NCBI GenBank assembly: GCA_000165425.1
Contig: CT868021.1
Span: 1-64,000, forward strand
DNA: 64,000 nt
Direction of reading: 5' to 3'
DNA from: Paramecium tetraurelia
Taxonomy: Eukaryota
Below the pieces are notes generated by a model. It was given only the letters and a program-made list of their open reading frames with translations, was not told the origin of the DNA and ran no database searches. The position numbers and the translations under genes were made by a program. Positions 12,301 through 18,258 of the stretch are shown here, in pieces (positions within the stretch are counted from its first letter, which is position 1; each line of letters begins with the position of its first letter).

Positions 12301-14710
12301 ATGAATATAGTTAATTTACTATATTATGTTTTAGGGCAGTTATAATTCACAACCACCTTAGGTATCTCGAAAAGCAGTCTTCTATTAACTTAAAATTATT
12401 AACAAGCAAATCAATTTTAGTAGTTTCATTATGAAAAATTGTCAGAATTGATCAGAAAATCTCTTGAATTTAATTAAAAAAGAAGAAGAAATATCTTATT
12501 AATATAAATAAAAATAATAGAAATACAAAAATATCTTTCTAACTAAAAGAAAATGATTTAGTATGATTAGCAAGAAGAGACATCATAATAATAAAATATT
12601 ACAATAACAAATTAAGCCAAATAAGAATAAAACGAGGCGATTGACGAAGAATCATTAAAATGTAATCTCATGAGTATATCAATTTAAAGAAATAATTAAT
12701 AATTAATATCAGTTTGATGAGATATATTATGAATTAGTTTTATTAGAGACAGAAGAAAAAATCAAAGAGAACGAACTTCTCAAAGACAATTAAAAGAATG
12801 ATGAATTATAAAGGCGCAAAGGTAGAATTATTTTTAACTCTTAAGGAAACCTCTTAATAAAATTAGGTAAATATGACGAATATTGGGAATATATTGATTA
12901 AGCAATTGCAGTAAATCCAAAAAACTAACTACTGATTCTTCACAAAGGTAAAATTTATCTACAAACTATTTAAGGGATTGCATTAGCTCAGTTAAAAAAA
13001 TATGAATAGGCTTTTGAATGTTTCAATGAAGCAAAAAAAATAGATCCTACAAATCAAGAATTTCTAATTCAGTTAGGTATTATTTGTTTTTATTTTCAAT
13101 TTAGCGTAATCACTAGAGGACTTTGATGAATTTGATGGAGCTTATAAATTTTATAATGAAGCTCAGAAACTTGGTGACAATGTAGAGATGTTAAATATTA
13201 ATAAAGGTAATTTTCAATAGGATTTAATTTTAGCCTCTGCATTAATTAATTTAAAGAGATGTGAAGAAGCCATTGAATTGTGTGATAAAGAACTTTCAAA
13301 TGCTACTTGTCATAAACGTGCTTATGCTACTAAGGGTATTATATAATTAAATTAATAAAAGCAAGGGCATTATATGTATCACTTAGATATGAAGAAGCTC
13401 TTGAAATTTGTGATAGGTTAATTTAAATGGATGAAAATTTTTAATTGGCTTATGATATCAAGGGTAAGTCTAGTAAAGTTTTATATCTTTTTTAGGAAGG
13501 ACCTTAGCCTCATTACAGCGACCTCAAGAAGCAATCTAACAATGTCTAAAAGCTATTCGATTAGATTAGAAGAAATATATACCTTATGCTACCATAGGTA
13601 AAAATAATATTGAAAGTTTACTTCAGCTGGAGCATTAGTTTAATTAAAACGTTATGAAGAGGCGATTGAATTTGCTGATATTTCACTTAAGTTAAACCCA
13701 AGGGGAGATATAGCTCTCGGCAACAAAGGTATTTTTACAAATTAATAATTAAGGAATGGCATTAACTAATTTAGATAGACTAGAAGAAGCTGTTGAGTGT
13801 TTTGGTTAAGCCCTTTCAATAACAAAAGATCATCCTATTCTAAATTATTTAATGGGTATGGTTAATTTTGAATAATTATTTTAGGATCTACATTAATAAA
13901 TCTAGATAGAGAAGAAGAATCTATTGAATATTTAGATAGGGCTATAAAAAGTAATCCAAAAAATTCTGAAAACCATTTGAAAAAAGGTTGAATTTAATTT
14001 AGCATAATTGCTTTAGGAATAGCATTATTTAGCTTAGGGAGATATGAAGAGTCAATTGAGATTTTTGACTTATCAATTGCTTTAAATTCAAATAATCTTT
14101 ATGCATTTTTTTACAAAGGTAAATGTGTTAAAACTAATAAATTTAGGAAAGTCTTTATTTAATTCAGGTAGATTTAAAGGTGCAGTTTTAACTTTAAGTG
14201 AAGCCCTTAAACTCCATTAAACAGAATTTGGAATATGGAATCTAATGGGTATATTATAATTTGACTAACAAATAAGGAAGATCATTACTAAACTTGCATC
14301 TCTTTGACTAATCGATTATATATTTGTTGAAAGCACACGAATTAAACCCATAGGATGAAGTAGTTATTTTTAACATAGGTAAATTTTTATTCTCAAACTT
14401 TAGGTCTTTCATTAGAACGTCTAAATAAAAATGATGCCGCCATTTTTTGGATTAATAAAGGTCTAAAGATTAGTCCAGACACTCATTATGCATTAGATTT
14501 AATGGGTCTATATTTTAATCTTATAATTATAGCAAAAACCTTAATAAAAATTGGGAAATTTAAAGAAGCGATATTATTTTCATAAAAAGCTGTAAGTCTA
14601 GATCCTAGTAACGAGGAGTATTAATAGAATTATTGTAATTATGAATATCATCTTTAGTGAAAGGTCTATATATGTTGGAATTGGAATACGCATCTATGGA
14701 ACACTAATGA
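12301..14710 (+). CDS. TPR-repeat protein with 14 consecutive 102-nt exons
   Basis: ATG 12301 (start uncertain), intron 12662-12689, then phase-1 introns delimiting 102-nt exons starting at 12846, 12975, 13105, 13234, 13362, 13496, 13627, 13754, 13885, 14017, 14147, 14277, 14404 and 14533; TPR consensus e.g. GIALAQLKKYEQAFECFNEAKKIDPTNQ; TGA 14708-14710. Confidence 0.85.
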
Positions 14711-15666: not shown

Positions 15667-16887
15667 TCAACTCTTCTTTAAGGCTTACTCACATTTATCT
15701 GCAATGAATTAATATATGTACTTTTTCTCATTTTAATAAATTGATCAACTGGAGAGATTTTTAAAGCTTACTCAAAGCAATTTAAAGCCTCAACAAAGTT
15801 CTATTTTTCTTGTAAGCACACACCTTTATAAGTTGATTATATAACTTTAAATTACCTTTGGATTAAAGTGAAAAGTAATCCTTTGGCTAGATTTAAAGAG
15901 CTTGATTCAACCATTTTAAAGATTCATCATATTTACCAAGCTCTCTTAGACAATCACCTAATTGATAAGGAAACTGCTGTTACCTTTACCATATAAAGAG
16001 TCCAAATGTTTTGGATTAATGGATAATGCTTAATCATACAGGATTATGGCTTCATTGAATTATCCAAGTCCTCTTAAGCAATCACCTTATAATTTTAAGG
16101 ATTTATTTACCTTTAGATGAGAGTGAGTTCAAATGCTTTGAATCCACTGATATGGCTTAATTATAAAAATTCAAAGCTTCCTTTAAATTGTTTTTCATTA
16201 TTAAACATTCACCTATTTTTAAACTATGAATTACCTTTACACCATAATGAATCTCTATTGTTTGGATTCAATTTCAATGTCTAATCAATTACTTAAATGG
16301 CATCATCGAATTTTTGATTATTAAATAAGGCAAAACCTAAATTAATTCAACAACCTACCCTTATTGAATAAATTCGTAGATGACTTCTCGTCATCTTTGC
16401 TGACTTCAGAAAAATTCACAGTCTTTATTAATAATTCCTATTTTAATTTGTCGATTTTCAACTTGTATTCATTTGATAAATCCGTGATAATCTTTGAGAT
16501 AGATATTTTATAATCAGCAAGAGAAATCATTTAACCAATTGCTTAATTCAGTTAATTAGAATCTATCTTCAAAAGTCTTTCCTTTGAGATGTGATATTTG
16601 TTTTTAATTTCATTTTTCAATTTTAAGTATGAGTCCAAAACAAGATCACCTTATTTGCTGATCGATTCACATAGACTATCACATTACTTATTATTATTAT
16701 CAATAAAATTGACTAATTAGTTCAATCCTTGAACATCTTTCATGTGTTGTTAATGGAGTCCTTTTTTAAGACATTAATTGCAAATCAATCTTAAGTCTGT
16801 GCACTATTTATTCAAACAAACCTATTAGATGAATTGAGTATGGTTTTCAATTAAACATTTAATATCTGGGATTTCGACTTCTATCAT
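15667..16887 (-). CDS. TPR protein with N-terminal Cys/His zinc-binding motif and coiled coil
   Basis: MIEVEIPDIKCLIENHTQFIQQVCLNKQCTDLRLICNQCLKKGLHQQH; five tiny introns; 102-nt TPR exons at 16235-16336, 16111-16212, 15984-16085 and 15856-15957; TGA at 15667. Confidence 0.88.
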
Positions 16888-17202: not shown

Positions 17203-18258
17203 TCATAATTTCTTAATTTTTGCAATAAACATACCACCTGTATTTGATACTTTTGGATCGAATCTAATCGTGTTAAAAATTTTGCCCGATTTACATTATT
17301 ATTAGTTCATACTATAAAATGGATTAACTAAAATGGCGTCATTATTTAATTCTAAAAACTTGATTATTTAATCTTCATTTTGCTTTTAAGAAAAGGAGCA
17401 TGTGCTATAAATTAACATTCCATTTTATTTAAGAAGTCTATATCCATTCTCTAATAAAGAAAATTATAAGTCATAGATTTATTATAATTTCTTTTAATCC
17501 AAAAATCTGCTGTTAAAATCCTCCTCAGTCCATTCATTTGCTTTTGTTTGTTCAGTTGTGTAGGTGTTAGTGTAATTTTTTTACAATTGTTTTTTAGAGG
17601 CCTTGTTATTTTTCTATTGCTTTTTCGTATTTTTTTCTTGAATGGGTTTATTTATGTATTTTTTTAAATGTTTTATACTACCCTCATGTGTGCATTCAGC
17701 GTCAATCAAAACTTTATCAAATAGTATTTCGCTTTTATATTTTGTTCCATCTTCTAATATCAATTCAACAAATTTTTCTAATTTATATTTATTAACTATT
17801 GATTGAGTAATATTTAATCTATTTTATGAGATGTCAACTCCAAATACCTTTCTTTAAATTCCATCTTCTTTCGTTTAGAGTCTCAATAAATCTGCTATAA
17901 AAGTTAATTTAGCTCCTGGCGCACAACAAATCTCCAATAAATTAGTGTCATTTTTATTGATGTCCAATGAATAAACCACTGCAGCACTTGATTTATCAAT
18001 TCCATATAAGTTTCCATCCTTATACAATTAGAGATTACTGATTTTTTCATCTGCGGGAAGAGAGTATAATGTTGGGATTTCATAAATAGGTAGTATTTAA
18101 TTTGACACTTGTTGTTAAAGTTATTCAAAAGTAATCTAATAATCAGGCTTTATTCGAATATAACGAAGGGTTTACTCAAACAAAAAGATTTCTTCGTCGA
18201 TTCCTTCCTCTTAAAGAAATTCCCTAAACTGTGGTGATAATTTATTTAAAATATTCAT
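17203..18258 (-). CDS. RsmB/NOP2/NSUN-family RNA m5C methyltransferase (351 aa, intronless)
   Basis: Motifs LEICCAPGAKL, FDKVLIDAECTHEGS, YSTCSFSQKQNE and C-terminal GGMFIAKI; 1056 nt in code 6. Confidence 0.9.

Follow-up and report, generated by a model that had tools for sequence, protein, structure and literature searches.

The DNA considered here is the first 64,000 nucleotides (nt), forward strand, of contig CT868021.1 in assembly GCA_000165425.1 of the ciliate Paramecium tetraurelia; this whole 64-kb stretch is called the window below. Two convergent neighbouring genes in it encode tetratricopeptide repeat (TPR) proteins, gene A on the plus strand and gene B on the minus strand. Read with the ciliate code, in which TAA and TAG encode Gln, the gene A region (~25% G+C) alternates between short coding segments and GT..AG mini-introns, and its core is an array of 14 exons of one exact length. 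Gene A corresponds to an NCBI entry for the P. tetraurelia macronuclear genome, the 581-residue 'unnamed protein product' P0001, and is 100% identical to it wherever the two models agree. The features of gene A are listed here beside this public model; the RNA joints and loose ends are those of the reads described after the list, and P0002, a P. primaurelia protein of 533 residues, is the closest relative of gene A.

12660-14710, plus strand: gene A, encoding a TPR protein; 16 introns and, in the working model, 535 amino acids before a TGA stop
12822-14657, plus strand: the array, 15 phase-1 mini-introns and 14 exons of exactly 102 nt each
12712-12746, plus strand: upstream intron, uncertain, 35 nt, phase 1, taken from the public model
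12822-12845, plus strand: intron 1, 24 nt, divisible by 3 and free of in-frame stops; same in public model
12948-12974, plus strand: intron 2, 27 nt, divisible by 3 and free of in-frame stops; same in public model
13077-13104, plus strand: intron 3, 28 nt; same in public model
13207-13233, plus strand: intron 4, 27 nt; read through in public model; loose RNA end in 4 reads, spelling the end of exon 3
13336-13361, plus strand: intron 5, 26 nt; same in public model
13464-13495, plus strand: intron 6, 32 nt; read through with a frameshift in public model; RNA joint (4 + 7 reads)
13598-13626, plus strand: intron 7, 29 nt; public model differs; units 6 and 7 match P0002 at 22/30 and 26/34 residues
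13729-13753, plus strand: intron 8, 25 nt; same in public model
13856-13884, plus strand: intron 9, 29 nt; same in public model
13987-14016, plus strand: intron 10, 30 nt, divisible by 3 but containing an in-frame TGA; public model differs; unit 10 matches TPR_1 at E=0.001
14119-14146, plus strand: intron 11, 28 nt; public model differs; unit 11 is collinear with P0002
14249-14276, plus strand: intron 12, 28 nt; public model differs; loose RNA end in 3 reads, spelling the end of exon 11
14379-14403, plus strand: intron 13, 25 nt; same in public model
14506-14532, plus strand: intron 14, 27 nt, divisible by 3 and free of stops; read through in public model; unit 14 matches P0002 at 19/34 residues
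14635-14657, plus strand: intron 15, 23 nt; same in public model; loose RNA end in 3 reads, spelling the end of exon 14

The array had been proposed by a model from the letters alone, and every coordinate of its 15 introns and 14 exons is borne out: on a check of coordinates only, all 15 introns are GT..AG segments of 23-32 nt. To place this regularity against background, both strands of the window were scanned for the longest run of Paramecium-sized GT..AG segments at one exact spacing. Under a strict filter, a spacing of 102 nt returns a chain of 14, and every other length from 30 to 299 nt returns at most 2. A loose filter returns two 102-nt chains, one of 14 on the plus strand (at 12822) and one of 5 on the minus strand (at 16358), with the remaining lengths reaching at most 4. 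Control sequence from metagenomes (45 loci, 212,830 bases, that code for TPRs and lack introns) gives 102-nt chains of no more than 3, and TPR coding sequence alone therefore does not yield the pattern. Intron phase is equally uniform: all 16 introns of gene A and all six of gene B are in phase 1, an outcome with a probability of 3e-11 if each phase were drawn at one in three. The 102-nt array is real and far beyond chance, and its exons are symmetric (phase 1-1), as claimed.

The public model leaves some room for a sceptical explanation, namely that GT..AG segments have been picked out of A+T-rich repeat DNA and that the introns are unreal. P0001 agrees with the 102-nt model at 8 of the 15 introns and differs at the other seven; it takes two 27-nt introns (4 and 14) as coding, reads through a 32-nt intron with a consequent frameshift, and renders the stretch of units 10-11 in the wrong frame. 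Transcripts were assessed in stranded oligo-dT RNA sequencing data (58-nt reads, depth 2-19), in which the plus strand of gene A is transcribed (271 + 169 reads). A GT..AG joint that skips 13464-13495 (32 nt) is carried by 4 + 7 reads, and three loose ends spell the ends predicted for exons 3, 11 and 14. Direct read support thus covers 4 of the 15 junctions, in a check whose power is limited by the 58-nt reads and low depth, and three of the four are junctions that the public model misses. In the other disputed units, it is only the spliced frame that gives TPR matches and conservation with the P. primaurelia homologue. Across 11 RNA runs, 0.56-0.59 of sampled words were found versus 0.51-0.53 expected for spliced mRNA, an unverified figure. 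Seven introns absent from the public model and 11 junctions lacking direct reads are the points in favour of an artefact; a chain of 14 that is unique over all exon lengths and both strands, control loci that stop at 3, and the layout of gene B, which stands in the public model and keeps its length in three species, make it hardly credible.

The TPR motif recurs every 34 residues, with a small side chain at each of positions 8, 20 and 27 and a Pro at position 32. When the peptides of single exons are compared with Pfam, 12 of the 14 match TPR families at E<=1, the peptides of exons 3 and 4 being the two without a match, and the register of the matches is constant, with profile positions 10-34 falling on peptide residues 2-26. 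This constancy identifies the split codon as TPR position 8, a small residue in helix A. Each exon is predicted to encode a permuted unit that opens with the last part of helix A, continues through helix B and the loop, and stops early in the following helix A. The proposal of one TPR per exon consequently holds for length and fails for boundaries, which are offset to position 8. The same signature emerges from the 19 units of genes A and B together, each of which has exactly 34 amino acids. Their consensus shows the A, F/L, A, P pattern of the TPR: unit position 1 (TPR position 8) is G in 14 and A in 5, position 13 (TPR 20) is A in 14 and S in 4, position 20 (TPR 27) is A in 13, and position 25 (TPR 32) is P in 11/19.

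At the level of the whole protein, P0001 scores 137.2 bits against TPR_2 (cut-off 27), 130.6 against TPR_8 and 125.8 against TPR_1, and in both P0001 and P0002 Pfam finds only TPR-type families. The predicted product of gene A is an all-TPR protein of ~535 amino acids, with 14 regular units preceded by a degenerate N-terminal part. By analogy with other arrays of this kind, it most likely folds as a TPR superhelix, a predicted protein-binding scaffold. Outside Paramecium, its best matches are TPR proteins of bacteria, generic in kind and 22-36% identical, and no specific orthologue is found among the best 120 matches.

The splice sites of gene A have a preferred context. The codon before the 14 unit-opening introns is Lys in 8/14, Met in three, Ile in two and Leu in one, and the split codon encodes Gly in nine and Ala in five. 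The description of introns mostly following Lys and splitting a Gly or Ala codon stands for these 14; it fails for intron 15, which is placed after the last unit and interrupts a Leu codon. As an observation on length, 5 of the 15 array introns are multiples of three, and four of them (at 12822, 12948, 13207 and 14506) lack an in-frame stop, whereas no intron of gene B has a length that is a multiple of three. Because these four introns contain no TGA, their retention would add 8-9 residues in helix A and would escape nonsense-mediated decay.

Whether this layout is peculiar to gene A can be judged from its neighbour. A profile of the 14 gene A units picks out, just downstream and on the minus strand, TPR-like pieces at a spacing of ~124-131 nt; these belong to gene B, whose model equals the public protein P0121 letter for letter (356 amino acids). 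Its features are as follows.

15667-16887, minus strand: gene B, 356 amino acids; an N-terminal exon of 176 amino acids followed by five 102-nt TPR exons
16235-16336, 16111-16212, 15984-16085, 15856-15957 and 15722-15823, minus strand: the five 102-nt exons
16337-16358, minus strand: intron 1, 22 nt, phase 1, K|G
16213-16234, minus strand: intron 2, 22 nt, phase 1, K|G
16086-16110, minus strand: intron 3, 25 nt, phase 1, K|G
15958-15983, minus strand: intron 4, 26 nt, phase 1, K|G
15824-15855, minus strand: intron 5, 32 nt, phase 1, K|G
15699-15721, minus strand: intron 6, 23 nt, phase 1, K|N
16360-16887, minus strand: Cys/His-rich domain and coiled coil, the intron-free first exon, 176 amino acids

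A Lys codon precedes all six introns of gene B, and the 102-nt phase-1 layout is thus found in 2/2 TPR genes of the window. The units of the two genes are only distantly related, with a mean identity of 23.7% between gene A and gene B and of 36.5% within gene B. That two such distant genes share the intron site points to an ancestral unit that already bore its intron, rather than to a quirk of one gene.

The divergence within gene A is just as deep. Its units are on average 24% identical in protein (maximum 47%) and 47.7% identical in in-register nucleotides (maximum 59.8%; shuffled sequence gives 29%), and nucleotide identity is independent of distance along the array. The introns had been described as divergent, and indeed their cores align no better than shuffled cores. 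This low, flat identity and the unrelated intron cores together leave no trace of recent duplication.

Divergent introns are also what the main rival on origin would predict. In that account, which we consider improbable, intron-less repeats multiplied first and mini-introns were later inserted in each unit at a proto-splice site, AAA-G|G. Besides the lack of sequence similarity among the introns, an AAG|G-like exon context speaks for it, with Lys at 8/14 and GGN at 9/14 sites in gene A and Lys at 6/6 in gene B. The sites that depart from this context are, however, no less occupied: 6/14 sites in gene A lack Lys and 5/14 have GCN, and all of them bear an intron. Parallel gain would further call for ~21 independent insertions at a homologous position and phase, with none elsewhere in 19 units, and for the same choice of site in two genes with just 24% identity between their units. 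The loss of intron similarity, in turn, is expected after long divergence in segments of 22-32 nt with 81% A+T.

We instead favour, at a probability of roughly 0.8, an ancient tandem duplication of an exon-plus-intron unit followed by divergence, which has left an array that is now fixed, ordered and frozen. The ancestral unit would have consisted of one 102-nt exon and one mini-intron, in phase 1 within the Gly/Ala codon at TPR position 8, and would have multiplied by tandem duplication of DNA. Going by the shared site, the same intron-bearing unit would also have seeded other TPR genes such as gene B. The copies would then have drifted apart until the TPR signature alone remained, while intron positions would rarely have moved. 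Exon length would have been held at 102 nt because the TPR tolerates no insertions or deletions: these occur in 0 of 133 units of the family proteins, in which 74 of 94 adjacent unit pairs are exactly 34 residues apart. Each intron of 22-35 nt is presumably now spliced out individually by intron definition. The phase 1-1 symmetry would have permitted unit gain at the DNA level in the past, and present-day shuffling or skipping is not indicated.

Conservation between species is consistent with an array that has long been fixed. The gene B orthologues of P. primaurelia and P. sonneborni both have 356 amino acids and align without gaps, at 86.5% and 81.8% identity, respectively, in the TPR part and at 75.6% and 66.5% in the N-terminal domain. 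For gene A, 11 of the 14 units have their best match at the collinear place in P0002, and summed over these 11 units 205 of 349 aligned residues are identical (~59%). The alignments indicate that the unit order of gene A is kept, whether P0002 is an orthologue or an older paralogue. The exon order that the sequence-only reading had called shufflable is therefore collinear, with gene B gapless in three species and 11/14 gene A units in place, which is to a large extent the outcome that this reading had itself named as speaking against it.

Several observations weigh against the duplication history or the gene model beneath it. Firstly, 11 of the 15 junctions rest on frame, Pfam TPR matches and homologue conservation in place of direct reads, and a loose end at 13335, the end of exon 4 (3 reads, run X22), does not fit the model. 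Past exon 4 these reads run on for 24 letters; the initial 11 agree with the beginning of exon 5 and the later ones with none of the exon starts in gene A, and the mRNA of a close paralogue is a possible source. Secondly, the 5' end of gene A is provisional, as ATG 12660 is taken from the public model. In the frame leading into the TPRs, a TGA at 12671-12673 is followed by no ATG, and the public model bypasses this TGA through ATG 12660 and the 35-nt intron 12712-12746. That segment, translated as coding in the other frame, resembles the N-terminus of P0002, and RNA depth is near zero upstream of ~12708. Thirdly, units 9, 10 and 13 do not have their collinear partner as best match in P0002; the annotation of P0002 is mis-framed at units 9-10, and unit 13 misses by one point (44 vs 45). 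P0002 is, moreover, only ~59% identical and lies on a different contig from the P. primaurelia orthologue of gene B, and it may be a paralogue of gene A and not its orthologue. Finally, the introns have no detectable similarity and there is no young duplicate pair, which makes the duplication origin itself a matter of inference, and the DNA-level evidence comes from two genes, both in the 64-kb window.

Wider searches add little to either side. Among 74 family proteins, 0 carry an insertion of 5-12 residues at the K|G site, a result that is uninformative on intron read-through. P0050 carries an 8-residue insert right after K-G, a possible read-through intron that was identified by back-reading and is not counted. 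A search of metagenome DNA with the alignment of gene B returned 591 pattern matches, none of them confirmed.

The N-terminal domain of gene B has a distribution of its own. Eight Cys/His positions are invariant or nearly so across 34 sequences, and its relatives form 71 representative clusters (32 at E<=1e-10) in which the domain is joined to TPR, WD40-like or other C-terminal parts. Pfam contains no family for it, zf-B_box included, beyond a weak KorB match (E 0.036), and no sequence in the PDB matches below E 0.26. The predicted model, at a mean predicted local distance difference test score (pLDDT) of 87.3, consists of a small knot and a long helical hairpin. In Foldseek, the top seven rows are all TRIM or B-box structures, with weak scores (E 1.3-6.1). 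VIA-align places KAP1 first (Z 6.9, root-mean-square deviation 3.0, 83 aligned) and TRIM72 second (Z 6.4, root-mean-square deviation 4.8, 82 aligned), both under the level that the tool regards as reliable. Upstream of gene B, an open reading frame of 351 amino acids lies at 17203-18258 on the minus strand; by eye, it may encode an S-adenosylmethionine-dependent RNA methyltransferase of the NOL1/NOP2/Sun type.

Since all exons are symmetric, the skip, gain or swap of a unit is arithmetically frame-neutral, and the sequence-only reading had gone on from there to a modular, shufflable recognition family, possibly for sensing symbionts or pathogens. Modularity has partial support, in that gene B has the same layout; recent unit copies are lacking and unit order is conserved. 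An actively shuffled or skipped TPR repertoire of this kind, comparable to those of Ectocarpus or Tetrahymena, is nonetheless very unlikely. Frame-neutral symmetry and the recurrence in gene B would fit it, as would the lower conservation of gene A relative to gene B (~59% vs 86.5% TPR identity with P. primaurelia) and the printed precedents (PMC3341825, PMC6564038). The family of the gene B N-terminal domain, which mixes a B-box-like knot and coiled coil with varied repeats, also weakly recalls TRIM proteins.

The arrays themselves, however, show little that an active repertoire would leave behind. Unit order and number are conserved, and no pair of units exceeds 47% amino acid or 60% nucleotide identity. 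No spare or inactivated repeat exons are present: the introns have 22-35 nt, and hits of the gene A profile on the minus strand are all at E>9, so that no opposite-strand TPR hit is significant. Skipping of one cassette would remove ~155 nt, and no such joint is seen in the gene A reads at a 2% threshold, a search with little power given 58-nt reads and low depth. According to Saudemont et al. (PMC5663052), P. tetraurelia introns average 25.1 bp with 99.9% within 20-35 bp, and exon skipping is not observed in P. tetraurelia transcriptomes, which is attributed there to a splicing machinery that recognises very short introns only. Skipping finds no backing in either source. The sensing role fares no better, as Pfam finds only TPR families in gene A and no NB-ARC, ROC or other signalling domain of the immune type. 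Ongoing shuffling and pathogen sensing are both unsupported.

The frozen array of gene A and its counterpart in gene B bear on how such genes are understood. The design of one repeat per exon in a single phase is not confined to the LRR genes of Tetrahymena or the receptors of brown algae and occurs in Paramecium TPR genes, where it outlasts the divergence of the copies and signs of shuffling are absent. Two ideas that are often merged can therefore be separated: symmetric cassettes as the fossil of array growth, and symmetric cassettes as a working generator of diversity. To our knowledge, Paramecium introns are the shortest spliceosomal introns. Introns that are multiples of three and have no in-frame stop keep the frame open when read through; since the public model of gene A misreads introns, a '102-nt rule' could serve to correct Paramecium TPR gene models.

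More tentatively, and with somewhat less than even confidence, we suggest that Paramecium TPR genes at large, possibly hundreds of them, are built from one clonal cassette, a 102-nt phase-1 exon plus its mini-intron. This would constitute a second, independent exon-array expansion in ciliates, old and frozen, and partly hidden in public models by the read-through of stop-free introns whose length is a multiple of three. If the design is genome-wide, it would provide a natural data set for dating the stability of intron positions and the growth of repeat arrays.

Exon-per-repeat systems described elsewhere allow these arrays to be placed. No literature on 102-nt TPR exons in ciliates was found in a search from which subscription journals were largely missing, nor did work on Paramecium TPR proteins turn up anything about exon structure. 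One precedent, which the sequence-only reading had invoked and which is real, is that of the Tetrahymena leucine-rich repeat (LRR) genes, with tens of thousands of exons of exactly 90 bp, more than 96% of them flanked by phase-2 introns (Xiong et al. 2019, PLoS Biol, PMC6564038). Its authors thought such exon uniformity unique. Both systems occur in a ciliate, both consist of arrays of repeat-sized exons of exact length in a single phase, with junction codons that interlock the exons, and for both a clonal origin by expansion of an exon-intron unit is proposed. They differ in repeat, length and phase (TPR, 102 nt and phase 1 in Paramecium; LRR, 90 and phase 2 in Tetrahymena) and in their introns, which have 22-35 nt in Paramecium and are much longer in Tetrahymena, with a peak at ~257 bp for some young copies. 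The Paramecium exons are old (48% nucleotide identity), whereas young Tetrahymena groups keep nucleotide similarity; the Paramecium arrays are conserved between species, whereas the LRR arrays of Tetrahymena are species-specific. Unlike in Tetrahymena, no link to retrotransposons was seen for the Paramecium arrays.

For TPR exons in particular, a nearer precedent is found in another lineage. The NB-ARC-TPR genes of the brown alga Ectocarpus, with 124 TPR exons of 126 nt and 21 of 102 nt (Zambounis et al. 2012, Mol Biol Evol, PMC3341825), share with gene A the coding of one TPR per exon and the tandem arrangement of equal-length, frame-preserving exons. The functional exons of Ectocarpus, however, have 126 nt, a 34-residue TPR plus a linker, and its 102-nt exons are truncated and probably non-functional. 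Its arrays lie behind an NB-ARC domain, have inactivated exons in long introns and paralogues that are unalignable or scrambled, and in part show positive selection; none of these features holds in Paramecium, where tested. A further parallel is provided by the 72-bp phase-2 LRR exons of brown-algal ROCO genes (Teng et al. 2024, PMC11378527). These and the LRR exons of vertebrate gonadotropin receptors resemble the Paramecium arrays in having an exon per repeat, a single phase and an origin by duplication of a prototype exon. They differ in encoding LRRs, in being in phase 2 and in giving rise to alternative splicing variants, whereas skipping is reported as absent in Paramecium (PMC5663052). 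At the protein level, gene A resembles ordinary multi-TPR scaffold proteins in its 34-residue helix-turn-helix units, its signature and its long uninterrupted array. What sets it apart from them is the regularity of its gene structure, which is unusual; the protein itself is not.

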